A DNA stretch of 64,000 nucleotides from NCBI GenBank assembly GCA_963674595.2, contig CAXXFV010000015.1, positions 160,001 through 224,000 on the forward strand, written 5' to 3'. Position numbers and translations under genes: made by a program. The stretch comes from a bacterium (GTDB taxonomy: Bacteria > Zhuqueibacterota > Zhuqueibacteria > Residuimicrobiales > Krinioviventaceae). How positions within the stretch are numbered: position 1 is the stretch's first letter; each line of letters opens with the position of its first letter. Positions 11,665 through 62,841 of this stretch are shown here, in pieces. The notes beneath the pieces are model-generated. The model saw nothing but the letters and a program-made list of their open reading frames with translations. It was not told where the DNA came from and made no database searches.

Positions 11665-12009
11665 TTATATAGCGATTCCGCCGCTTTCTTCTGTACGAAT
11701 TCGGATACATTTTTCTAATGGCGTTACAAAAATTTTTCCATCACCCACCTTGCCACCGTTATCAGATTTTGCCGCCTTGATAATTGTGTTGACAGTAATA
11801 TCCACAAATTCTTCATTAACAGCGATATCCAGTTTTATTTTGGGAATTAAATTAGGGATAATTTTTTTCCCTCGGTAAACTTCAATTGCTTCCTGGCGCC
11901 CATGTCCTGAAACTCTGCTAACAGTGATTCGAGTGATTTCTGCCTCAATCAAGGCTTCACGAACCTCATCGAGTTTTTCTTCCCGAATAATTGCTGTAAT
12001 TAATCTCAT
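11665..12009 (-). CDS. glnK: PII nitrogen regulatory protein (GlnK-like, copy 2)
   Basis: GHGRQ, YRG T-loop, GKVGDGKIFV, IRIRT motifs; directly downstream of amt. Confidence 0.95.
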   Translation of the reverse strand: MRLITAIIREEKLDEVREALIEAEITRITVSRVSGHGRQEAIEVYRGKKIIPNLIPKIKLDIAVNEEFVDITVNTIIKAAKSDNGGKVGDGKIFVTPLEKCIRIRTEESGGIAI

Positions 12010-12022
12010 AACAAATCTCCTG

Positions 12023-13354
12023 CTAGTTTGCGTTTAACATTCCATAACCATGTTCACCATGATAACTACTATCAAGACCGGCCATTTCTTGAGCTTCAGA
12101 GGATTTTAGTCCAATAAATTTTTCAACAAATAATATTATTAGCAATGTTAATAAAGATGCATAAACAATTGCTATCAATACGGCTAAAACCTGTACTCCA
12201 AGCTGCTGGAAAACGGTCCAGGTACCGCCGGCAGATGATGCTGCGTCCAGCATCCAACTTTTTCTGATGAAAAAACTGAGAAAAATAGCTCCTACGATTC
12301 CTCCAACACCATGGACTCCAAATGCATCAAGACTGTCATCATAACCTAATTTGTTTTTTAATAATAGTGCACAATAACACAGAATAGCTGCCAGTATTCC
12401 CAATACCATTGCTCCGGCGGGTTGCACAACTCCTGCTGCCGGTGTGACGGCAACCAGACCTGCCAGAATACCACTGGCAAAACCGAGTGCTGTCGCTTTC
12501 TTTTGATGAATGTTTTCTATTATCATCCACGTTAGCGCCCCGGCAGCCGCAGCCGTTTGGGTTGCTGTAAGTGCCTGGGCCGTACTAAGGCCGGATGAAA
12601 TAGAACTGCCGGCATTAAATCCGAACCAGCCAACCCATAAAAGTCCTGCTCCAATCATCGTCATTGTCAGATTGCTGGGCGGCATGGCCGTTTTGGGATA
12701 TCCTCTTCGGGCACCCAGGTAAAGAGCGGCGACAAGCCCGCTTACACCGGCAGATATATGTACAACCGTTCCTCCGGCAAAATCAATAGCGCCATTGGCT
12801 CCCATATTATAAAGGAAGCCATCTGCTGCCCATACCCAATGGCATAATGGATTATAAACTAAAATTCCCCAAAGTGCAATAAAAATTGTATACCCTTTAA
12901 ACGTGACTCGTTCTGCAAACGCTCCGGCAATGAGTGCAGGCGTAATGATGGCAAACTTGCCCTGAAACATTGTAAAGACATATTCCGGAATTCCGGCGCT
13001 TAGTATCGATTCGTCAATACCTTTTAAAAAAAAGTATTTCGGATCCCAGCCAAACCAACCTCCCAGCACATTCGGTCCGAATGACATGCTGTATCCCAAA
13101 ATAACCCATAATACGGTCATAATTCCCATTGCTGCAAAACTATGCATCATGGTGCCTAGTACATTTTTAGTTCGAACCAGACCTCCGTAAAACATTGCCA
13201 GACCGGGGATCATTAAAAGTACCAGGGCCGTAGATGTCAGCATCCATGCTGTCGCTCCGGTATCTATACCATTCCCGTCTGACGCCAACAAGTTATTATT
13301 GGATATTATTAATAAAACCGAGAACAAAACAAAAAGCATCCATTTTTTCTTCAC
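12023..13354 (-). CDS. amtB: Ammonium transporter (AmtB-like, copy 2)
   Basis: PGLAMFYGG, FQGKFA, DFAGGTVVH, WVGWFGFNAGS, DDSLDAFGVHG; twin-His intact; N-terminal signal peptide. Confidence 0.97.
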   Translation of the reverse strand: MKKKWMLFVLFSVLLIISNNNLLASDGNGIDTGATAWMLTSTALVLLMIPGLAMFYGGLVRTKNVLGTMMHSFAAMGIMTVLWVILGYSMSFGPNVLGGWFGWDPKYFFLKGIDESILSAGIPEYVFTMFQGKFAIITPALIAGAFAERVTFKGYTIFIALWGILVYNPLCHWVWAADGFLYNMGANGAIDFAGGTVVHISAGVSGLVAALYLGARRGYPKTAMPPSNLTMTMIGAGLLWVGWFGFNAGSSISSGLSTAQALTATQTAAAAGALTWMIIENIHQKKATALGFASGILAGLVAVTPAAGVVQPAGAMVLGILAAILCYCALLLKNKLGYDDSLDAFGVHGVGGIVGAIFLSFFIRKSWMLDAASSAGGTWTVFQQLGVQVLAVLIAIVYASLLTLLIILFVEKFIGLKSSEAQEMAGLDSSYHGEHGYGMLNAN

Positions 13355-13420
13355 GTTAATTTCCTTGTTTTATAATAGATTTGATTTTTTGGTTAATGAA
13401 AGGTATTGGGTATTTTCCGG

Positions 13421-13436
13421 TCAAATAATATGCCAA
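13421..13436 (-). promoter_or_regulatory. Sigma54 -24/-12 promoter of amt-glnK (copy 2)
   Basis: Minus strand TTGGCAT-ATTAT-TTGA (consensus TGGCAC-N5-TTGC; A instead of C at -12), about 70 nt upstream of the start. Confidence 0.75.
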
Positions 13437-13544
13437 TCTGAACCAATACATTTTTAAGGAGTGGATAGTTTGTTATTTTATTGTTTGTTCGAAGGTTAAG
13501 TGATTTTTTCGGTAAGTAATTTAGAAGGAGGGTGGGGGTATTTC

Positions 13545-13588
13545 TTTCAATTTTGTAGGAAGTTCAATAATAACCTACAAATATGTTG
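13545..13588. promoter_or_regulatory. Paired palindromic boxes (putative activator UAS, pair 1)
   Basis: tttCAatttTGTAG at 13545 and CTACAaataTGTtG at 13575; starts 30 bp apart. Confidence 0.7.
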
Positions 13589-13761
13589 TTTTTGTTCGTT
13601 TTGAGCCTTTTTTATTTCATGTTTTAACCGAAATTTGGTCATTTACCTTGGCCCGGTTCGACCTGTTTATAATTTTTTTTGTAAAACAGCTCTGTTTTTG
13701 CCAAAAATAGGAATGATTTTAGATGAAAAAGTTGGTTAAAAGTAATTTGGTGCCAATAATA

Positions 13762-13805
13762 ATACGATTTTGTCGTTTTTTGAATTGAATTTTACAATAA
13801 TGTAG
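13762..13805. promoter_or_regulatory. Paired palindromic boxes (putative activator UAS, pair 2)
   Basis: aTACgatttTGTCG at 13762 and tTACAataaTGTAG at 13792; starts 30 bp apart. Confidence 0.7.
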
Positions 13806-13812
13806 CTTATTT

Positions 13813-13850
13813 AATGATTTGGCTCTACTTGACAGGTAGAGCCAATCATT
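13813..13850 (-). terminator. Strong hairpin after the porin-like gene (terminator or 3' stabiliser)
   Basis: AATGATT(T)GGCTCTAC / GTAGAGCCAATCATT inverted repeat; U-tract weak. Confidence 0.6.
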
Positions 13851-13886
13851 CTTTTCGAGTGGAGATGTGTGAAAAAAATCAGTAGC

Positions 13887-14549
13887 TTAAAAACCATAGC
13901 TTGCTGAGAGGAAAAAACCATTGTCCATGCCATCACTCAGGCCGGCTATCCAATTCCAACTGACGTCTACATTGTCAGAGACGGATTTTCCGGCTGATAG
14001 TAAAAGAGTTGCTACTTTATCGTCTTCCGGAGACGTAAACGCTGAATAGGAACCGTATCCAAGAGTGGCGCTCAGGTCTGCACCGTATTTCGTTGTTCCA
14101 AGGCCAAGTTCAAGCCAATATACACTTTCAATGTCACCATCCTGTTGTTCAGGTGTGTAATAAAAGCTCGCACTTGCCGGACCGAAAGCTGCTGAACCAA
14201 AGATTTCATATACTGTATATTCTTCTTTGGCGAAAAAATCATAAGTATAAATTGTACCACCAATTGAACTTTCTACAGAGCCGGTTGGTAATGAAATGCT
14301 AAAATATGGATCTGTTTCCACGGCAATACCGTCTGCCATACTGGAGACCCAAAAACCAACTGCAACTGATGATTTTGAAAATTCTGCTGTTCCCTGCATT
14401 GCTGATCCGTCAAACTGTTTTACGCCGCGCCAAAAGTATGTTGAAACAACTGTAGCGTCACCTGAAAAACCGATTTCGGCATAGGCGCTTGAAAATAGTG
14501 TAAGAGAAAGAAAAATTATTGCCAGACCTGTAGTAAACTTTTTCATCAA
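13887..14549 (-). CDS. Outer-membrane beta-barrel, TorF/Gcw_chp-like putative porin
   Basis: Signal peptide (SAYA-E), VSTYFWRGVKQ...AMQG...VGFWVS N-terminal pattern, alternating beta strands, C-terminal SASYGF ending in Phe; co-oriented with glnK-amt. Confidence 0.75.
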   Translation of the reverse strand: MMKKFTTGLAIIFLSLTLFSSAYAEIGFSGDATVVSTYFWRGVKQFDGSAMQGTAEFSKSSVAVGFWVSSMADGIAVETDPYFSISLPTGSVESSIGGTIYTYDFFAKEEYTVYEIFGSAAFGPASASFYYTPEQQDGDIESVYWLELGLGTTKYGADLSATLGYGSYSAFTSPEDDKVATLLLSAGKSVSDNVDVSWNWIAGLSDGMDNGFFLSASYGF

Positions 14550-14580
14550 ATATTTCTCCTGATAATCAATTTTATTAAGG

Positions 14581-14612
14581 ACGGCGTTAAATTTTATGAG
14601 CTTTAACGCCGT
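14581..14612. other. Intercistronic hairpin between amt and the porin-like gene
   Basis: Perfect 11-bp inverted repeat ACGGCGTTAAA / TTTAACGCCGT with a 10-nt loop. Confidence 0.7.
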
Positions 14613-14637
14613 ATATTTTGTACTATTTATTAATTAA

Positions 14638-15978
14638 TTACTGTGTAACAAAGATTTGAAATCCACTATAAGCTTCCATACCATGTTCGCCGATGTCCAA
14701 GCCTTGCAGTTCTTCTTCTTCCGTAACACGCAGGCCAACAGTCTTTTTAATTATGTAGAACAAGATCAAACCAAGGCCGAATGCCCAAACAAAAGCTGTG
14801 ACTACGCCAAGTGCCTGAATGCCAAGGAGTTTAAATCCGCCGCCATAAAAGAGGCCGCCGTCTACGTTAAATAGGCCAACTGCTAAAGTACCAAAAGCAC
14901 CGTTAACACCATGAACGCTGACTGCACCAACCGGATCGTCAATTTTAAGTACGCGATCGATAAAAAGAACACTAAAAACAACGAGAACGCCGGCAATCAA
15001 GCCAATAATAAGTGAACCAAAAGGTGATACTGTTGCGCATGGAGCTGTGATTGCTACCAGTCCTGCCAAGGCACCGTTTAATGCCATTGAACCGTCCGGT
15101 TTTTTTAGGATAATCCAGGCTGCGAACATTGCGGAAATAGCACCTGCGGCAGCAGCCATGTTTGTTGTTACGGCAATTCTTCCAATGTTTCCATCGCCAA
15201 ATGTTGTTGATCCTGGGTTGAATCCAAACCAACCAAACCAAAGAATGAATACACCAAGTGCGGCAATTGCAATATTATGGCCCGGAATAGCTTTGGGTTT
15301 ACCGTCTGGTGAGTATTTACCAATACGTGGTCCAAGAATTAAGGCACCGGCCAATGCAAGCCATCCGCCTATAGAGTGAACAACTGTTGAGCCTGCAAAA
15401 TCCTGGAAACCAAGCCCTTCCAGCCAACCGCCTCCGTCGAGCAATCCACCCCATGCCCATGAACCAAAAACAGGATAAATAATAGCACAGATAAAGACAC
15501 TATAAGTAAGATATCCTACGAATTTTGTACGTTCTGCCATGGCACCGGATACGATTGTAGCGGCTGTACCGGCAAAAACAGTCTGGAAAATGAGAAATGT
15601 CCAGTTCCAGTCGGCGCCCATTACATCGGTTCCAATCAGTGCAAAATGTGTTGTGCCAAAGAGACCGTTAGACGCGCCGAACATAAGTCCAAAACCAATT
15701 AGAAAAAATGAAACGGTGCCTACTGAAAAGTCCATTAAATTTTTCATCATTATATTTACTGTGTTTTTTGCACGTGTAAAACCTGCTTCAACCATTGCAA
15801 AGCCCGCCTGCATAAAAAATACTAAAAAGGCGGCAACGCATGTCCAAACGATATTGATATTATCCTGCAATGTTTCCAGGGCTTTTGTTGTATCTGTAGC
15901 TTCTTGCGCTAATGACAAACCGTTAAAAAGCAATATTAAGAAAATAGCGCCAATAATTATTTTTTTAACCTTAAACAT
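14638..15978 (-). CDS. amt: Ammonium transporter (copy 1)
   Basis: FMQAGFAMVEAG, FQTVFA, SGAMAER, DFAGSTVVH, WFGWFGFNPGS, DDPVGAVSVHG; twin-His intact; signal peptide. Confidence 0.97.
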   Translation of the reverse strand: MFKVKKIIIGAIFLILLFNGLSLAQEATDTTKALETLQDNINIVWTCVAAFLVFFMQAGFAMVEAGFTRAKNTVNIMMKNLMDFSVGTVSFFLIGFGLMFGASNGLFGTTHFALIGTDVMGADWNWTFLIFQTVFAGTAATIVSGAMAERTKFVGYLTYSVFICAIIYPVFGSWAWGGLLDGGGWLEGLGFQDFAGSTVVHSIGGWLALAGALILGPRIGKYSPDGKPKAIPGHNIAIAALGVFILWFGWFGFNPGSTTFGDGNIGRIAVTTNMAAAAGAISAMFAAWIILKKPDGSMALNGALAGLVAITAPCATVSPFGSLIIGLIAGVLVVFSVLFIDRVLKIDDPVGAVSVHGVNGAFGTLAVGLFNVDGGLFYGGGFKLLGIQALGVVTAFVWAFGLGLILFYIIKKTVGLRVTEEEELQGLDIGEHGMEAYSGFQIFVTQ

Positions 15979-16015
15979 TCATAACTCCTGAAATTATATT
16001 AAATTAATTTTATTA

Positions 16016-16357
16016 TCAACCAATTGCATCACTGCCGGTCTCACCGGTTCGAATTCTAATACATTCCGTCAAGTCCTGGACAAAAATCTTTCCATCTCCG
16101 ATTTTTCCGCTTCTTGCACCCGCGATAATACCATCAATTGTTGGCTGGACATATTCTGCATTAACGGCGATTTCCAGGCGAATTTTTTTGAGTAAATTCA
16201 CTTCAATGTCGGCACCACGATATGTTTCATGGTATCCCATTTGCTGTCCACATCCCAGAGCATTTGTTATTGAGAGTTTATAAATTTCTCTTTCAAATAA
16301 TGCCTGTTTAACGGCGTTTAGTTTTTCTGGTTGGATATAAGCGATTACGAGTTTCAT
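16016..16357 (-). CDS. glnK: PII nitrogen regulatory protein (copy 1)
   Basis: [25 protein letters not shown]. Start moved to ATG 16357, which has an AGGAGA RBS; the longer ORF would overlap the sigma54 promoter. Confidence 0.95.
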
Positions 16358-16400
16358 GCAATTTTCTCCTTTTTTTGCTAAATTGAATTTTTTTTGTTTT

Positions 16401-16418
16401 AAGCAATTCACGGGCCAC
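16401..16418 (-). promoter_or_regulatory. Sigma54 -24/-12 promoter of glnK-amt-porin
   Basis: Minus strand GTGGCCC-GTGAA-TTGCTT, with correct GG/GC spacing, about 45 nt upstream of the glnK ATG. Confidence 0.85.
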
Positions 16419-16432
16419 TTTTTATTTTTCAG

Positions 16433-16445
16433 TAAGTTGTTGTTT
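16433..16445 (-). promoter_or_regulatory. IHF-like site between UAS and sigma54 promoter
   Basis: AAACAACAACTTA versus WATCAANNNNTTR (1 mismatch), in the expected position. Confidence 0.5.
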
Positions 16446-16483
16446 TTATTGATCCGATCTATGATCTACATACAATCCTATAG

Positions 16484-16526
16484 ATTCATTTTTGTAGGTT
16501 TAAATTATCAGACGACAAAAATGTAG
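16484..16526. promoter_or_regulatory. Paired palindromic boxes (putative UAS, pair 3)
   Basis: attCAttttTGTAG at 16484 and CGACAaaaaTGTAG at 16513; starts 29 bp apart. Confidence 0.72.
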
Positions 16527-16619
16527 GATTTTGTGTGATAGAGTTGTGTGTATGCCTGTTTGCTTGTTTTTGCTGTTGCAAAATGCATTATATGGCAATT
16601 TTAGGTCTTGCTATATTTC

Positions 16620-16662
16620 CGACATTTTTGTACCTTAATTTTTCCATATAACGAAATTGTAG
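16620..16662. promoter_or_regulatory. Paired palindromic boxes (pair 4), overlapping the regulator's own promoter
   Basis: CGACAttttTGTAc at 16620 and taACgaaatTGTAG at 16649; starts 29 bp apart; overlaps TTGCTA-N17-TACCTT at 16608-16636. Confidence 0.7.
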
Positions 16663-16683
16663 TTTTAATGAAAGAATTAAATT

Positions 16684-18246
16684 ATGGCAGCCCCCAAACA
16701 ATCAAAAAACAAGTCAGAAAATATGCCTTTAATGAAAAAATTATCAATTTTAATTGAAATTAATCAGGCTGTCAGCAGGGGTTTAAATTTACAAGAGTCT
16801 TTAAATGCGGCACTTAAAATTTTGGCAAAGTCATATAATATAAAATCAGGCGCTATTTTTTTAACCAATGAAAATGAAAATACTCTTACAATGATGACTT
16901 CAATTGGTTATCGTTCAGAAATTGCAAAAACAACCTATGAAATGGGTGAAGGTCTAACAGGAAAAATTGCAGAAACGGGTAAACCCATTATATCTCCCCA
17001 AGTCAGCAAAGAACCACTGTTTTTAAATCGTATGAGTTCTTTTGACCCGCAAAGTGACCGGGAGCAATCTTTTATTGGCGTTCCAATTATTTTTGATTAT
17101 AAAACAATAGGGGTTTTGATTGGTAATTTACCTTTTAATTCAAGACGAGATTATGATGGCGCTTTGAAATTTTTGACTCTTGTGGCTTCTGCATTGGTCC
17201 AACCAATTCGTTTACAACATGTGATTCAAATGGAACGGCAACGCCTTTTGGATGAGAATGTTATGTTAAAGCAGAAACTTCAGGATGAATATCGGTTTCA
17301 TAACATTATCGGAAACAGCCATGAAATGCGTGATGTATATGAAAAAGTAACACAGGTGGCCAGGGCAAATACTAACGTATTGATAAGGGGAGAGTCGGGA
17401 ACCGGAAAAGAGCTGATTGCCCAGGCAATCCATTATAACTCTTTACGTCAGGACAAACCCTATATAAGAGTCAATTGTGCCGCTATTCCGGAAAATTTAA
17501 TAGAGTCAGAATTTTTTGGCTATGAAAAAGGTGCTTTTACAGGGGCTGTTGCACGTCGAAAAGGTCGGTTTGAACTGGCAAATAGTGGAACCATTTTTCT
17601 TGATGAAATTGGTGATTTGAGTCCTATGACGCAGGTGAAATTACTTAGAGTCATTCAGGAGCAGGAATTTGAACGAATCGGTGGCACTGAAACACTTCAA
17701 GTTGATGTGCGTATTGTAGCGGCGACAAATGCCGAACTGGAATATAAAATTGAAGATGGTACTTTTAGAGAAGATTTATATTATCGGTTAAATGTTTTTT
17801 CCATATACCTGCCTCCTTTACGCGAAAGAAAGTCTGATATTCTTTTACTGGCAGACCATTTTATGTTAAAATATGGAAGAAAACATGGCAAGGCTATTAA
17901 AAGAATTTCCACCCCGGCTATTGATATGCTCATGAGATACCATTGGCCGGGTAATGTCCGTGAGCTGGAAAACTGTATAGAGCGCGCTGTGCTTGTTTGT
18001 GAAGATCAGGTTATACATAGTTACCATTTACCACCTACTTTACAAACAGCAGAGAGCAGCAATACCTTGCCTCAAAAATCTTTAGTTAAGGCTGTTGCTT
18101 CTTATGAACGGGACATGATTCAGGATGCACTCAAGTCAACGAACGGAAGTAAGGCCAAAGCTGCACGGTTGTTAAATGTTACGGAACGAATTATTGGATA
18201 TAAAATTGATAAATATAATATTGATGTAAAACGGTTTAAAAGCTAA
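16684..18246 (+). CDS. NifA-like sigma54-dependent transcriptional activator (GAF-AAA+-Fis HTH)
   Basis: N-terminal GAF ([14 protein letters not shown]...SFIGVPI), [14 protein letters not shown] loop, [17 protein letters not shown]-terminal HTH; no receiver domain. Confidence 0.93.
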
Positions 18247-18503
18247 ATTATTTTAAAATAGAATTATTATTTGTTTTGTTATAGATTTAAAAGATTATGA
18301 ATCTGATTTAAAATCATCTATTCTTTAGTTAATATTTATGTGTATATTTGTATGAAAAGATTAAGTGTTAAAATCGACAAATTTGTTGCATCACAGACAA
18401 CTTTTTTTTATCTTGAGATAGATGTTTGTTTAAATAAATGGCAATGTTAAAGAAACCAGGTTAAATTCCTGGATGGGATCAACTCAAATAAAGGTATCCA
18501 AAA

Positions 18504-19710
18504 ATGAAACGACTTTATTTTATTTTTACTTGTGTCATTTCATTGACCTGTTGGATTTCGTTGAGTCATGCAATTGAGTTTGGATTGGGAACTTTGCATG
18601 TCGGCTCTGCAGCAACAATTGCTAAAAAGGGATTGAATATCGGAACACATTCTCATGCATTTTTTAAAGATGAGATGAATCAACTTTCAGACGGCACCTC
18701 TAAAGGTGAAACCTACTGGGATGTTCAAGGGCGATTGGGGTTAGTCTATGGCTTTACGGAAAAACTGGAACTAGGATTGTCCTACATTATGTATCAGGAC
18801 AACCATAAGGGCGGTGACGGATATAACTTTCCGGATAATTTATTATTACGTGTGAAACTGGGGTCCCTGGGACCGCAAACAAGTTCCATGCGTTTTGGTT
18901 TGCAGGGTAATTTTCGGTTTCCAACGACAAACAAGTACAATTTACCGCTGGAACCCTATTCTGCTGATCGAATTGGCGTTGGTCTGACGGGTTTGTTTTC
19001 CATTTTATCTGATCCGTTATACCCGGAATATGGATTTAATTTACACGCTAATTTGGGATTTTTTAATCATAATGATTTTGGACTCACCATGACCGATGTT
19101 CCAACTGATACGATAACGGCAACTGAAAATACCAAAGAACTTTTATATGGTATTTCTGCGGCCAAAAAAATTCAACATTTTAATCTTTATGCAGAAATTT
19201 ATGGAAGCACATTTCTGACAGAACCTCCTATAACAGCCTATACCAGGGAAAGCAGTTTGTATTTTTCTCCCGGCATCACCTATCAATCCAGCCGGACGAT
19301 GAGTTTTAATGTTGCCCTGGATTTGCGACTTATTGGAAATGATGATAAAACTGTCTACTCTGGCTCCCAGGGAAGTATTTTTGAAAAAACCCTGGAAAGA
19401 TGTACCCAATTTACCAAGTTGGCGTATTAATATAGGTGCAACGTTTGCGATACGAAGAGGGCTGGATAATAAATATTCGATAAATGAATACCAGCAAAAT
19501 ATTCCGCAAGCCGAATCTTCCCAGGTAGATCAGGATATTTATATGAACCTGGCAAAGGAGCGTGAAAAAACTGAAAATGCCGAAGCAGAGTTGGAACGAA
19601 TTCGTTCCGAACGGCAGAGGATGGAAGATTTATTAAAGCGTTTACGTGGTTTGCTGGATCCTGAAAAAACAGCTCCCCAAAGCAAGAAAATAATCAAGAA
19701 TAAAATATAA
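18504..19710 (+). CDS. Putative outer-membrane beta-barrel protein with C-terminal coiled coil, split by a 1-nt frameshift in the A6 run at 19384-19389
   Basis: Signal peptide and amphipathic beta strands; removing one A joins ORFs 18504-19430 and 19309-19710 as GSIFEKPWKDVPNLPSWRINIGATF...ENAEAELERIRSERQRMEDLLKRLR. Confidence 0.65.
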
Positions 19711-58030: not shown

Positions 58031-58045
58031 TGGCATCTTATTTGC
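58031..58045 (+). promoter_or_regulatory. Sigma54 -24/-12 promoter
   Basis: TGGCAT-CTTAT-TTGC, exact spacing, about 150 nt upstream of ATG 58198. Confidence 0.7.
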
Positions 58046-58197
58046 CAAAAGTCAACTGACAAATTCAGACAAGAGTTCTATTAATTTAGAATTTTACTTT
58101 TCCTTTTTTATAGGAGGTGAGATTGGTTTATATGGCTATTATGAATAGAATGAAACGTAATTTTTCTTTTATAATTAATTGTAAAAGGGAGGAAAGA

Positions 58198-61100
58198 ATG
58201 AAAAACAGTAGCAAGCAAATGGTAATGTTTCTTGTTGCCTTTATGCTGATTTTGAGTTTTTCCCAAATTGTTATGGCTCAAAACGGTACAATTGCCAACA
58301 GGGAAACTGCAGACCCGCAACAAACCGGTTATGCAAAGTGGATTAAAATAACGGTGAAAGGTGGTCCGGGTGGAAACGACAACCTGGATGACAATTTTTT
58401 GGGTATGAAATTTCTTGTCGATTTAAATGTCGATTTGGATAACAACGAAAATACCCATACCGGAGACGTGTATGAATTACGCGGAAATATTGCGGGTGAA
58501 ATTGTCTCTACACCAACTGGAACCAATGATTACGATTCCTATTTTTACCTGCCGGTAAAACAGGGTACGGATACACCCTATCCCGTAGGTGAAACGGGTT
58601 ATCCAACATCATTACAGCCAAGGGTTTGGTTACAAACCTCCGGTCAGTTGCGTGTTGGTACCGCTCCGTTTTCATTTCCAATTGGGATTGACGCCCAATT
58701 TGAAATTTGTGATGACGGTATAAAACCTGTTATTCGAAAAGCATATTATTATGATGACGGAACCGGAAACACAATAGCTGTTGCTAATGTTCACAGTGGT
58801 AATATCACACCGTTTGACGGCAGAATAGACCGTGTGGACCTGATCTGGAGTGAACCGATGCAAACTCCGGCCACCCCTGCTGTGGTCAACGGCATGTTTA
58901 CCAATCTGGGATCAACGATTTATGGTATTGAACCTGTCGGTGAATGGAACGTGACACCTGCTGTTATTGCCAATCCGGAAACATATCTGGACCCGGCAGC
59001 AGTACAACAGGAACTCGGTCAATTCCGTTTTACTTTTTATCCTTTTTCATCACAGCCCAATTCCGGTATTCAACCGATTTTAAACTATAATCCTCCGGCA
59101 TCACCTGATGATCGTTTTCGTGAATTAAGAGATTCCGCGAATCCTTATGCTTATGCTCAAACAAGGGCATTAACGGATAAAGCAGGTCCTGCTATTGTCA
59201 GTGCAAAAACAAAAAGAGCCAACAGAAGACAGCCTTTGGCCAATGCGTTGACAAGCCGAAGAATTGAGGTTACATTTAGTGAACCTGTTTTATTGTCTAC
59301 CGTTACAGGATCAGATTTTGAAGTTTTTACAAATGGTACATTGAATCCTATTACTGGGATTATCTCTCCTGTCGCACCTACAACCAGCAGTTCAGTTTAC
59401 GAGTTTCAATTAACAAACAATTTTGCAACTGAAAATGAAACCGGAACGATACAATATACAGACGTTGAAACGAATGAAGTACGTGACATTCTTGGAAATG
59501 TAAACGGTCATTCAACTGCGCAAGAACCGCCTGTTCGTCCGGCAAATTCACGTGGATTAGTAATACCGATAACAGATGGTATTTTCCCAAATATTATTCA
59601 GGTAACCACAGTCGATGCTGACCCTGCCACACAAATGGCAACCGGTGGCACCTGGGGTTGGGGTTATTTGGATTATGTTGATGTTTTGTTTGATCATGCC
59701 ATGAATATTACCAGAACAAGCGTATCGGGATTTTCTGTTTCCGGTATGGGTATTCAGACAGTTGGCGGAACAGGTGTATGGCTTGAAGACGGCAGAACAT
59801 TTCGCGTTCCTCTTGTTGCCACAGATCCCAAGTTACCAAACACCGGTATTATTCCGACTGTGACATATACAAATCCGGCTGATCCTTATGGCTGTGAAGC
59901 AACAAATGGCGGAAACGCAGAAAATCTGTTATCAACAGATACTTATGTCTCTTCGAACAATTATTTAGCTGTTCAAATTTTGGATGGCGCCGGTCCTGCC
60001 ATTATTAAAGCTTACACAGCCGGTAGAAAACGAATTCGTGTATCTTTTAGTGAAAAAGTTAACACGAATGGTTGGCCGACATCTTTGGCCACTTCTCAGG
60101 CACCTACACGTTTTAAATGGTACGTTGGCGCGACACTTTCTGATCCTATTACAACCACGATTTTCTTTACCGGATTGTCTGGCGGTCGTCAGGACAGTGT
60201 TGTTTATTTAAATCATAATAGTTCTGAATGGGCTAAAACAGACAGCGGCGGCATCAACTTTTTTGCTCAAGGCGCTGTTTTCGATCTCAATGGCATTCAA
60301 AATATGCAATGGGATAATGACAATAGTCTGCTCATTAGAAATTTAACAAATCCGGACGTTAAAGTACGTCGCGATAATATCGCACCTATTTTACTTGTTT
60401 TGGAAACAGTAGATATTGATTTGGATGGTAAACTGGATCACTATCGCTTTTCATTTGATGACTTGTCACCGATCTTTCCAAGAAGCTCTTTTAATGTTGC
60501 AAATTGGTCGATCACAGGTTATGACGGTGTGAAAAATAATTTACAGGTTGATTTAAATGTCTATAATCCTTTCCATTCATTTTTTCAACCAACAGCAATA
60601 AATACTTTTGGTGATACTGTTGAAGTATTTGTCAAATTTGACGAAACAACCGGAGCAGGACCTGAAGTTACACCTTATGGTGGAGATACGGGTGATGTCC
60701 CGGATGTGGTTGTCGATGCAAATAACGGTTTTGCAGACTGGGCTGATAATGTGATGGCAGCACTTCCTGTCGGTTTAACCGTTGAAGCAGATAAAGCAGG
60801 CCCTGCAATTATGAGTGCACGGACTGTTAATACTTATCAGGTTGAAACATTCATTAGTGAAAATTTAAAAAGTTCTACAATCAATAAAGAAGACTTTGTT
60901 CTTGATATGGGTTTAAATGTGGGCATTGGCTGGTCATTTGACAATGTAACTCAGGTAAGCCCTGGAAAAGTTGTTATTACAGTCTATCAAAATCCGACAT
61001 TGTTCTGGTCTCCAACACAAAACGGAACCGTACAATTTTCTGAAGTTGGTGTTGTAACAGATAATATATCCGGTACGGATAATGGAAATATGCAGGTTGC

Positions 61101-62841
61101 CGAGATCAATGTAAACGATCATGCTGCCAGTAAATTTTTGATTGCTCCGGCATTGGATGATCCTGAAATACCAATGGATGATGCTCAAATTGTTGGTGTT
61201 CAGTTCTTTGTTGAAATTATCGCTCTTGACAGTCATGATAGTTTGGATACTAACTTTCCTTATTTAATTGAATTGTCCAGTAATCTTACCCAGGATGAAA
61301 TTGATCTTCCGGACGGACCGTCTCGTTTAACCAATGGTGTAGGTTATTTTCCGGTAACATGTTGGAAAGAAACAGACAATCTGTTAATTACCGTTTCAGT
61401 TCCTAATGTAGATCAATACACTCTCGTTTATAATACATCCGATCCGATTACTGTTGTTCCTCCGGTTATAGATACTCCGGACACTTTAATCGTCCGTGAT
61501 TATCGAGGCGCCGATGGATTGGGTGATCAGGGTGGTTATGTCCAGTTTGTTTTTGATTATTCCGCCAATCATCCGGGTATCGGTATCGATAATATCATCA
61601 GCTATTATCAGATATACCGAAAAACATTTAATGAAGGCATCCCTGAAATATCTCATTGGTGTACAATACCGGCAACAGATCCTGGTGACACCGGTGCAGA
61701 TTCGCTTATTACCGGGCCTGTTTATACCGGTGACAATGTATTGTCTCAATGGATGGTACGTGCCGTATATACAAAAGCTCTAAATTCTAAAAATGCCACG
61801 ATTACAACGGATCAAGCCGGCACAGAACCGCGGTTAATCCGCCGTGCGGGACGTGTTGTTCTGAGAACTGAAGACAACGGCATTTCAACGACGTATGCTG
61901 ATCAAATTCAGTATGTATCCGGTTATGCCATGGCAAATGGTCGTGCAATTGATAATATAGCACCAAAATCACCTGAATATCTGCTGGCAGATAAAGAAGG
62001 TGTTACTGTTAATTTGCATTGGCAAAAAGTAACAGTCGGTATTAACGGTATGCCTGAAATTACCCCGGTTAAATATGAATTATTCTCTAACAATTCCAAA
62101 GCATATTTTAATCCGGCAACCGAAGGAACGCTCATTGCCACATTATCTGACACAACCTATATGGTCAACAGTGAAGATTTGAGAGCTTTCTTCTGTGTAC
62201 GTGCTATAGACAGCGATAATCAATCAGAACTTTCTGATCGTGTTGGAAAATATGGTTTCCATTTGGATCGTGGAGAGAATTCTGTTTATAATTATATTTC
62301 ATTTCCATTGCACAATTCTTTTGAAAATGCAAAAGGATTGGCAAATAAATTTAAAGGTATTGAAGTTGCCTTGCAGCTTGAAGAACGAACCAACGGATTC
62401 AGTAAATATTATTTGCCTGATTTAAATTTTGGTCAAAATTTTGAGTTGCATGTTGGTATGCCTTTGTTGTTATCCTTGAAAAAATCAGCAGAAGCCTCCT
62501 GGTTCTATTCCGGCCGTGTACCTGCTGCAGAATCTGTACAGTTTGCATTGAATAGAAGTGCGGCTGGTTCCTACAATGAAATCACAGTACCTCTTGATAA
62601 AACGAATATCAAGACAGCCGATGATTTGGCCAAAGATATTGGCGGTGTTGAAGTTGTTTTGAAACTGAATCCGGAAACAAATGGTTTCAGTCAATTCTGG
62701 ATTCCGTCTATAAAATACGGTACTAATTTTGAAATTGCTCCAGGTGAGGCAGTTTTAATTAACGTCAATAATTCAGCACCTGCTGTATGGCCGACATATT
62801 CTACTTCTGTCGTTCAGGTAACTAACGTAGCGGAAGAATAA
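58198..62841 (+). CDS. Giant secreted repetitive (Ig-like/FN3) surface protein without a T9SS tail
   Basis: Signal peptide MKNSSKQ...VMA-Q after a GGAGG RBS; repeated D-x-x-x-P-x-I domain starts; duplicated C-terminal ~90-aa module. Confidence 0.85.
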   Translation: MKNSSKQMVMFLVAFMLILSFSQIVMAQNGTIANRETADPQQTGYAKWIKITVKGGPGGNDNLDDNFLGMKFLVDLNVDLDNNENTHTGDVYELRGNIAGEIVSTPTGTNDYDSYFYLPVKQGTDTPYPVGETGYPTSLQPRVWLQTSGQLRVGTAPFSFPIGIDAQFEICDDGIKPVIRKAYYYDDGTGNTIAVANVHSGNITPFDGRIDRVDLIWSEPMQTPATPAVVNGMFTNLGSTIYGIEPVGEWNVTPAVIANPETYLDPAAVQQELGQFRFTFYPFSSQPNSGIQPILNYNPPASPDDRFRELRDSANPYAYAQTRALTDKAGPAIVSAKTKRANRRQPLANALTSRRIEVTFSEPVLLSTVTGSDFEVFTNGTLNPITGIISPVAPTTSSSVYEFQLTNNFATENETGTIQYTDVETNEVRDILGNVNGHSTAQEPPVRPANSRGLVIPITDGIFPNIIQVTTVDADPATQMATGGTWGWGYLDYVDVLFDHAMNITRTSVSGFSVSGMGIQTVGGTGVWLEDGRTFRVPLVATDPKLPNTGIIPTVTYTNPADPYGCEATNGGNAENLLSTDTYVSSNNYLAVQILDGAGPAIIKAYTAGRKRIRVSFSEKVNTNGWPTSLATSQAPTRFKWYVGATLSDPITTTIFFTGLSGGRQDSVVYLNHNSSEWAKTDSGGINFFAQGAVFDLNGIQNMQWDNDNSLLIRNLTNPDVKVRRDNIAPILLVLETVDIDLDGKLDHYRFSFDDLSPIFPRSSFNVANWSITGYDGVKNNLQVDLNVYNPFHSFFQPTAINTFGDTVEVFVKFDETTGAGPEVTPYGGDTGDVPDVVVDANNGFADWADNVMAALPVGLTVEADKAGPAIMSARTVNTYQVETFISENLKSSTINKEDFVLDMGLNVGIGWSFDNVTQVSPGKVVITVYQNPTLFWSPTQNGTVQFSEVGVVTDNISGTDNGNMQVAEINVNDHAASKFLIAPALDDPEIPMDDAQIVGVQFFVEIIALDSHDSLDTNFPYLIELSSNLTQDEIDLPDGPSRLTNGVGYFPVTCWKETDNLLITVSVPNVDQYTLVYNTSDPITVVPPVIDTPDTLIVRDYRGADGLGDQGGYVQFVFDYSANHPGIGIDNIISYYQIYRKTFNEGIPEISHWCTIPATDPGDTGADSLITGPVYTGDNVLSQWMVRAVYTKALNSKNATITTDQAGTEPRLIRRAGRVVLRTEDNGISTTYADQIQYVSGYAMANGRAIDNIAPKSPEYLLADKEGVTVNLHWQKVTVGINGMPEITPVKYELFSNNSKAYFNPATEGTLIATLSDTTYMVNSEDLRAFFCVRAIDSDNQSELSDRVGKYGFHLDRGENSVYNYISFPLHNSFENAKGLANKFKGIEVALQLEERTNGFSKYYLPDLNFGQNFELHVGMPLLLSLKKSAEASWFYSGRVPAAESVQFALNRSAAGSYNEITVPLDKTNIKTADDLAKDIGGVEVVLKLNPETNGFSQFWIPSIKYGTNFEIAPGEAVLINVNNSAPAVWPTYSTSVVQVTNVAEE

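Follow-up and report, generated by a model that had tools for sequence, protein, structure and literature searches.

Sigma-54 activators that combine a GAF domain, an AAA+ domain and a helix-turn-helix (HTH) domain have been described in Aquifex aeolicus (AQ_218, Nlh1/Nlh2), an organism without nitrogenase. In 2000, Studholme et al. reportedly found AQ_218 bound about 100 bp upstream of glnBA. In a review, Nlh1 is "speculated" to control nitrogen assimilation and not fixation, its GAF domain is described as exerting negative control and its ligand is given as unknown (PMC9866876). A further precedent is the EbpA-RpoN system of the non-diazotroph Leptospira interrogans, for which a review describes a GAF-type activator that is needed for amtB transcription and low-nitrogen growth, and recombinant EbpA, an FhlA-like protein with two GAF domains, that binds upstream of its targets (PMC12655853). 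Here we describe an activator of likewise GAF/AAA+/HTH architecture and its predicted regulon, encoded in a stretch of 64,000 nucleotides (the window; G000:C15:160001-224000) of genome G000 (6.6 Mb, about 38% GC, 97.6% complete). Judged by the names that its close homologues carry, the genome belongs among Calditrichota or candidate division KSB1.

The activator gene (16684..18246, plus strand, 520 amino acids (aa)) is divergent from glnK1, the first of five minus-strand genes (11665-16357) arranged as glnK1-amt1-porin followed by amt2-glnK2. Compared with Aquifex Nlh1, the encoded protein comes from another phylum and its GAF domain shares only about 35% identity, and the Aquifex descriptions consulted mention neither an operator motif nor a regulon nor amt or porin targets; compared with Leptospira EbpA, for which the comparison is by description only, it has one GAF domain. 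Based on paired candidate sites at a type III glutamine synthetase (GSIII) gene, on glutamine synthetase (GS)-linked neighbourhoods in relatives and on sites at the nif-linked paralogue of a diazotrophic relative, we propose that the activator is probably a general nitrogen-assimilation regulator, that is, a one-component analogue of NtrC from the NifA/Nlh1 branch.

Paired palindromes upstream of sigma-54 promoters

The palindrome shared by the regulatory regions of the locus is TACA-N4-TGTA, with a fuller consensus of C-n-TACA-W4-TGTA-n-G (12-16 bp), and it occurs in pairs 29-30 bp apart. Over 108 loci, the core ACA-N4-TGT was counted 260 times in the 650 nt that precede the activator gene, whereas shuffled sequences averaged 20.6 occurrences and never exceeded 30. 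When the window was scanned with a weight matrix trained without genome G000, exactly two pairs per operon were recovered, the eight sites scoring 11.6-15.9. Upstream of glnK1, the distal pair lies next to the activator start codon (16619-16634 and 16648-16663; spacing 29 bp; scores 12.8 and 11.6) and the proximal pair about 90 bp upstream of the -24 element (16483-16498 and 16512-16527; spacing 29 bp; scores 11.8 and 15.9). Upstream of amt2-glnK2, the distal pair is found at 13761-13776 and 13791-13806 (spacing 30 bp; scores 12.2 and 14.4) and the proximal pair, about 130 bp upstream of the promoter, at 13544-13559 and 13574-13589 (spacing 30 bp; scores 13.2 and 15.5). A counterpart of the 16483/16512 pair is present in the orthologous intergenic regions, and the arrangement of the 13544/13574 pair is also seen in the locus of one relative (L056). 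In relatives, a site pair lies 57-150 nt before the activator start codon, and the pair at 16619..16663 probably serves autoregulation of the activator gene.

Both operons have a predicted sigma-54 promoter on the minus strand: TGGCCCgtgaaTTGCT at 16402..16417 for glnK1-amt1-porin, which follows the -24/-12 pattern, and TGGCATattatTTGAC at 13420..13435 for amt2-glnK2, in which the -12 element reads TTGA and not TTGC. A -24/-12 element was present 5' of glnK1 in all 14 orthologous intergenic regions read, and L056 carries TGGCAT-N5-TTGAC (TGGCATattctTTGAC) before amt2, at the same place and almost letter for letter as in the window. The first-pass annotation of this DNA had already drawn the gene map, placed a GAF-AAA+-HTH activator without receiver domain divergent from the operons, and assigned to each operon a -24/-12 promoter and two pairs of a common palindrome. 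All of this was borne out: the matrix finds exactly these pairs, the promoters are conserved, and the Pfam domains of the activator (GAF, Sigma54_activat, AAA_lid_14 and HTH_8, with no Response_reg match) agree with the proposed architecture. The sole adjustment concerns the start of glnK1, which is the ATG at 16357 with its ribosome-binding site, the listed open reading frame (ORF) to 16411 being an upstream GTG extension.

Across the 6.6 Mb of G000, single sites scoring at least 10 number 670. Strong pairs, in which each site scores 8 or more, the two scores add up to 21 or more and the sites are 27-33 bp apart, number six in the whole genome, four of them in the window and two upstream of the GSIII gene, with a spacing of 29 bp in four cases and 30 bp in two. 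At any spacing from 17 to 80 bp, only three other strong pairs were found, one each at 41, 45 and 80 bp. A relaxed scan returned 18 pairs, of which the 12 outside the three targets look like background. One weak pair (C21:15462), together with TGGTACaagagTTGCA, precedes a receiver-type sigma-54 activator gene that is broken by several stop codons (G000:C21:12170-15492). An exact-pair pattern run on five genomes gave no matches in reversed controls, and its matches in G000, G009 and G013 are at or near nitrogen genes: the match in G000 is at GSIII, and those in G009 and G013 adjoin amt, the porin gene, a GS gene or the activator gene. The same two relatives show local variants of the locus: in G013 (L162, G013:C56:36799-39838) three successive sites between amt1 and porin give the latter a set of its own, and in G009 (L165, G009:C5:1370764-1373802) the position behind the porin gene, taken by amt2 in G000, is occupied by a GS-like gene that has a site pair to itself. 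Within the portions of the literature that our search could reach, no described TACA-N4-TGTA enhancer was found.

Glutamine synthetase and the neighbours of the activator in relatives

The two strong pairs outside the window lie at C15:238564-238722 and are followed by TGGCATgggatTTGTT and then by the GSIII gene, about 60 kb from the locus, with a TonB-dependent-receptor-like gene behind it. At all three targets, the proximal pair is located about 90-130 bp and the distal pair about 210-350 bp upstream of the -24/-12 promoter. The GSIII gene itself (G000:C15:238856-241059; L148:4857-7060) is split into two ORFs that overlap (580 aa and 176 aa), owing either to a frameshift or to an assembly error; in relatives the gene is one continuous ORF of 732-761 aa. 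Because the gene for the main ammonium-assimilating enzyme carries the same double-pair enhancer and -24/-12 promoter, the module is not self-contained, as the first-pass annotation had supposed it to be.

An activator orthologue with 67-78% identity was found in 37 of 40 relatives, which span five families of the order; in three cases the orthologue is incomplete or split at contig ends. Among 80 named public-genome loci, four were without a full activator and 20 had less than 1.5 kb of upstream sequence, leaving 56 usable loci. The gene directly upstream of the activator was GSIII in 20 of these, type I glutamine synthetase (GSI) in nine, glnK/amt in 11, the porin in two, a TonB-type receptor in one and another gene or none in 13, and at least one nitrogen gene (glnK, amt, GS or porin) lay within the locus in 51. 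The expectation that the activator would be linked to amt-glnK in relatives was thus half borne out, with glnK/amt as upstream neighbour in 11 and GS in 29 of the 56 loci, and the linkage is therefore to nitrogen-assimilation genes in general. Two site pairs were found between the activator and glutamine synthetase in eight of ten relatives examined, including a Fidelibacterota genome, and the promoter pattern detected a -24/-12 element in six of these ten intergenic regions.

More distant homologues (49-54% identity), from Spirochaetales loci and from a locus labelled Deltaproteobacteria, adjoin amt-glnK and have the same palindrome pairs. A sigma-54 promoter and the motif precede amt/glnK in one Spirochaetales locus (49%) and glnK-amt in the Deltaproteobacteria-labelled locus (53%); a second Spirochaetales locus has the site pairs, and the pattern found a promoter there only beyond glnK.

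These observations bear on a narrower interpretation, namely that the activator serves ammonium scavenging alone, as a self-contained and dedicated switch that controls nothing beyond the porin and the two Amt/PII pairs, and whose GAF domain is bound by the PII proteins it induces in a feedback loop. Such a switch would fit the organization in G000 and its closest family, in which activator and glnK-amt are transcribed divergently (within 1.5 kb, in 15 of 29 loci of relatives), and the finding that the only two PII genes of G000 both lie in the regulon; moreover, some NifA proteins of Proteobacteria are known to be under PII-GAF control (PMC3854208). However, it leaves out the two site pairs and the sigma-54 promoter of the distant GSIII gene, the position of glutamine synthetase as neighbour of the activator in most relatives, and the sites carried by the nifA paralogue of a diazotrophic relative (see below), and we consider it unlikely that the activator is dedicated to ammonium uptake in this way.

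Alternatively, some other DNA-binding protein, such as a nitrogen repressor, could be the one that recognises the palindromes, and the activator could use other, unrecognised enhancers or respond to a non-nitrogen signal. Measured between their centres, the half-sites are only about 8 bp apart, a short distance for an HTH dimer of the Fis type, and one exact pair in G008 (L164, G008:C1:3797514-3800552) precedes an unknown 257-aa gene and an H+-pyrophosphatase gene, both without an obvious nitrogen role, with no clear -24/-12 element. Yet the sites occur together with the activator gene in loci that bear at least four different phylum labels, lie at enhancer-like distances upstream of sigma-54 promoters and flank the activator start, and they vary together with the conserved recognition helix: TERIIGYKI and close variants are conserved in the family along with the motif, whereas the nif-linked paralogue has TPRMVRYKI. 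A separate owner of the palindromes therefore appears improbable.

Relation to NifA and NtrC, and candidate signals

In line with the first-pass description of a NifA-type one-component GAF activator, the protein has the architecture of NifA, with a GAF sensor at about residues 20-190 (Pfam GAF 35-170), a sigma-54 AAA+ domain in whose translation the Walker A motif GESGTGKE and the GAFTGA loop can be read, and an HTH_8 domain. With the NifA equivalog model TIGR01817 it scores marginally above the cut-off (535.4 against 528.85), JGI names its homologues "Nif-specific regulatory protein", and its best full-length PDB match is NifA (9qq6_C; 397.9 bits, residues 19-517), a protein of the same three-domain architecture. 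For the GAF domain alone (residues 16-190), the top PDB match is Aquifex Nlh1 (4g3k, E 3.8e-19), compared with E 1.8e-10 for the NifA GAF domain 8jrc. The NtrC model TIGR01818 gave 344.6 bits against 558.6 and matched the AAA+ region only, and the FhlA model covers the activator with a score of 334.9 against a cut-off of 830. G000 encodes a second GAF-type sigma-54 activator (G000:C35:20856-22139; 506 aa; NifA model 388.8 bits), which is far from the studied one and sits on a long tree branch.

Proteobacterial NifA is encoded with, and controls, nitrogenase genes through enhancers of the consensus TGT-N10-ACA, and rhizobial NifA carries a Cys-rich interdomain motif. The Cys-rich motif was not seen in the activator sequence, the conserved sites are TACA-N4-TGTA pairs, and the best nifH score in G000 was 34.5 bits against a cut-off of 394, in agreement with the absence of nif genes stated at first pass. 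Across the order, nifH exceeded the cut-off in two of 43 genomes and was lacking in 41. Both nifH genomes have the orthologue, transcribed divergently from glnK-amt, as well as another paralogue (50% identity) next to nifH. In the nif cluster of G008 (L153, G008:C1:309000-327000), the gene for the NifA paralogue and nifH are followed by two small ORFs (114 and 125 aa), possibly PII genes of the nifI kind, and then by nifD and nifK. Upstream of nifH are three GACAATTATTTCCG-like repeats and TGGCACaaccgTTGCC, the repeat differing from TACA-N4-TGTA, while upstream of the paralogue gene itself a site pair (scores 11.8 and 11.5; spacing 29) is followed at a distance of about 100 bp by TGGCATggattCTGCA. 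Judged by its predicted sites and promoter, this is the layout of an NtrC-to-nifA type cascade with the studied orthologue in the NtrC position. A split into orthologue and nif-linked paralogue was also found in a Thermodesulfobacteriota genome.

TIGR01817 does not separate these two groups, since the G008 orthologue and nif-linked paralogue score alike (525.2 and 527.2, both just below 528.85). In a quick, unrooted tree of 38 activators, in which the row L157 is a wrong-frame ORF and meaningless, the 25 Calditrichota, KSB1 and Fidelibacterota orthologues form a clade (SH-aLRT 97). The nif-linked paralogue of G008 groups weakly (88-90) with Desulfobacterota and Spirochaete homologues, and the nif-linked protein of another genome, G044, falls on a long branch near the outgroups; this tree gives no root, no order of events and no resolved relation to the nif-linked proteins. 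That the activator is a genuine NifA orphaned by loss of a nif cluster, a relic merely beside the amt genes, would account for the equivalog pass, the PDB match and the JGI label, but is highly improbable given an orthologue conserved in nearly all relatives of an order in which nifH is rare, a different paralogue beside nifH in both nifH genomes, a model that does not discriminate, and sites that differ from the NifA consensus.

In its predicted regulon, the activator instead resembles enterobacterial NtrC: sites and promoters suggest sigma-54 activation of glnA, of amtB-glnK and, in a diazotrophic relative, of nifA, with multiple upstream enhancers and sites at the regulator's own gene. This is a functional likeness and not membership of the NtrC family. 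Unlike the NtrC/NtrB pair, the activator has no receiver domain and no partner kinase, and hence constitutes a one-component system; its operator is different, and no GlnD feeds a PII cascade. rpoN is present in G000, whereas searches of this genome gave no glnD (best score 38.6 against a cut-off of 519) and no NtrC equivalog above cut-off (best score 456 against 558.6). The first-pass statement that NtrBC is lacking accordingly stands at the level of NCBIfam equivalogs and no further, as about 18 receiver-type sigma-54 activators remain in the genome.

In proteobacterial PII proteins, uridylylation takes place at Tyr51 of the T-loop (Escherichia coli numbering). Position 51 is Ile, not Tyr, in both GlnK1 and GlnK2 and is near-invariant in 16 aligned sequences, which is consistent with the absence of glnD, and both proteins would probably report 2-oxoglutarate and ATP/ADP without covalent modification. 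As to how the activator itself senses nitrogen, we see about an even prospect of direct ligand binding to the GAF domain, and give readout of PII a smaller, tentative share. A complex prediction for a GlnK1 trimer with the GAF domain scored 0.02 against a mark of 0.32 and is uninformative either way.

From these features we infer the following scheme for the proposed general regulator. Activator dimers would bind the 12-16-bp palindromes of the proximal and distal pairs at each target. Upon nitrogen limitation, sensed by the GAF domain, the AAA+ domain would be released, oligomerise on the enhancer and open the sigma-54 promoters of glnK1-amt1-porin, amt2-glnK2, the GSIII gene and, possibly, the TonB-dependent-receptor-like gene behind it. 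As the signal, a small metabolite, for instance 2-oxoglutarate, is most likely, perhaps combined with PII input.

Several observations weigh against the activator as a general nitrogen-assimilation regulator. In 13 of the 56 usable loci, no gene of recognised nitrogen function lies directly upstream of the activator, the relatives are not independent samples, and in four of the ten activator-GS regions the promoter pattern found no -24/-12 element. One of the receiver-type sigma-54 activators of G000 could act as a divergent NtrC. Within the window alone, the core motif occurs eight times against four expected, which is not significant, and a loose -24/-12 pattern has four matches against 2.3 expected over the 64 kb, which is not above chance; in addition, the -12 elements of amt2 (TTGA) and GSIII (TTGT) deviate from TTGC. 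The case for the sites rests on pairing, clustering and conservation, and that for the promoters on conservation.

Other genes of the locus and significance of the regulon

glnK1 (16016..16357, minus strand, 113 aa) and glnK2 (11665..12009, minus strand, 114 aa) encode PII proteins that are 51% identical and whose two Pfam P-II scores are 91.5 and 77.5 bits (cut-off 25). The ammonium transporter genes amt1 (14638..15978, minus strand, 446 aa) and amt2 (12023..13354, minus strand, 443 aa) score 415.8 and 388.7 bits with Pfam Ammonium_transp and 439.8 and 422.5 bits with TIGR00836, respectively. A gap of 532 bp separates the porin gene from amt2 and contains, 41 nt past the porin stop codon, a hairpin with a perfect stem (13819..13845) and a T-run on the plus strand only, a possible operon boundary.

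The protein referred to as porin (13887..14549, minus strand, 220 aa) has a signal peptide and no Pfam or NCBIfam match when searched alone, the window copy missing PF09694 (Gcw_chp) at E<=1. This family was matched by nine of 11 aligned homologues (best E 4.5e-10), and the window copy is probably a divergent Gcw_chp member. Its AlphaFold model (pLDDT 83.8) shows a signal peptide followed by an all-beta barrel, and the top Foldseek matches of the model are outer-membrane channels, with TM values of 0.5-0.6 to 12-stranded barrels (NanC, intimin beta-domain). On the strength of this model, "porin" is a fair reading for an outer-membrane beta-barrel protein, and membership of the operon suggests a role in ammonium passage. 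At NCBI this family carries the name "TorF family putative porin" (TIGR02001), and such genes adjoin amtB-glnK in some Proteobacteria.

The product of the plus-strand gene downstream of the activator (18504-19430), 308 aa long, weakly matches Phenol_MetA_deg (Pfam E 8.4e-6), the outer-membrane channel family represented by 4rl8 among the Foldseek matches of the porin model. Homologues with 40-47% identity are also located 3' of the activator in seven relatives' loci (L066, L067, L098, L100, L103, L110 and L127). A single palindrome site (18374..18389; matrix score 13.1) lies between the activator and this gene, and reading the sequence of the region revealed no -24/-12 element. Having one site but no such element, the gene was left outside the regulon, its membership being doubtful. 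Elsewhere in the window, a good sigma-54-like element, TGGCATcttatTTGCC, is found at 58031-58046 on the plus strand, 70 nt 5' of a 1574-aa ORF (58117-62841) without Pfam match, with a single ACATTATTGT another 226 nt upstream. A scan for sigma-70 promoters found 32 against 23 expected and was uninformative.

Our literature search retrieved nothing published on this regulator in Calditrichota or KSB1, in agreement with the first-pass view that no such module had been described in the lineage; a Desulfovibrio vulgaris sigma-54 regulome paper does not mention amtB/glnK, and a comparative sigma-54 paper does not mention Calditrichota. Outside the lineage, however, the coupling of EbpA and RpoN to amtB in Leptospira is a precedent (PMC12655853). 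A NifA-like regulator of Nitrospira was also considered as a precedent and rejected, as it concerns nxr genes and not nitrogen assimilation. The regulon, the operator and the position in the cascade are new details, and the phyletic reach is wide.

Nitrogen control is poorly mapped outside Proteobacteria, Firmicutes, Actinobacteria and Cyanobacteria, and the regulon described here provides concrete, testable predictions (operator, promoter positions and targets) for abundant, mostly uncultured sediment phyla. Since 41 of the 43 genomes of the order are without nitrogenase, the label "NifA" or "Nif-specific regulatory protein" is misleading for these activators, which matters when diazotrophy is inferred from metagenomes. 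The system also offers a natural setting in which to find the ligand of Nlh1-type GAF domains and an opportunity to study how transcription receives input from PII proteins that are not open to uridylylation. More speculatively, one orthologous group of one-component GAF activators may be the ancestral master nitrogen regulator across much of the bacterial tree, including Calditrichota, KSB1, Fidelibacterota and parts of Desulfobacterota and Spirochaetota. In that event it would replace NtrB, NtrC and GlnD, sense the nitrogen status with its own GAF domain, without an intermediary, and stand above NifA in diazotrophs, with a paired TACA-N4-TGTA enhancer conserved across phyla and the nif-specific NifA proteins as specialised offshoots.

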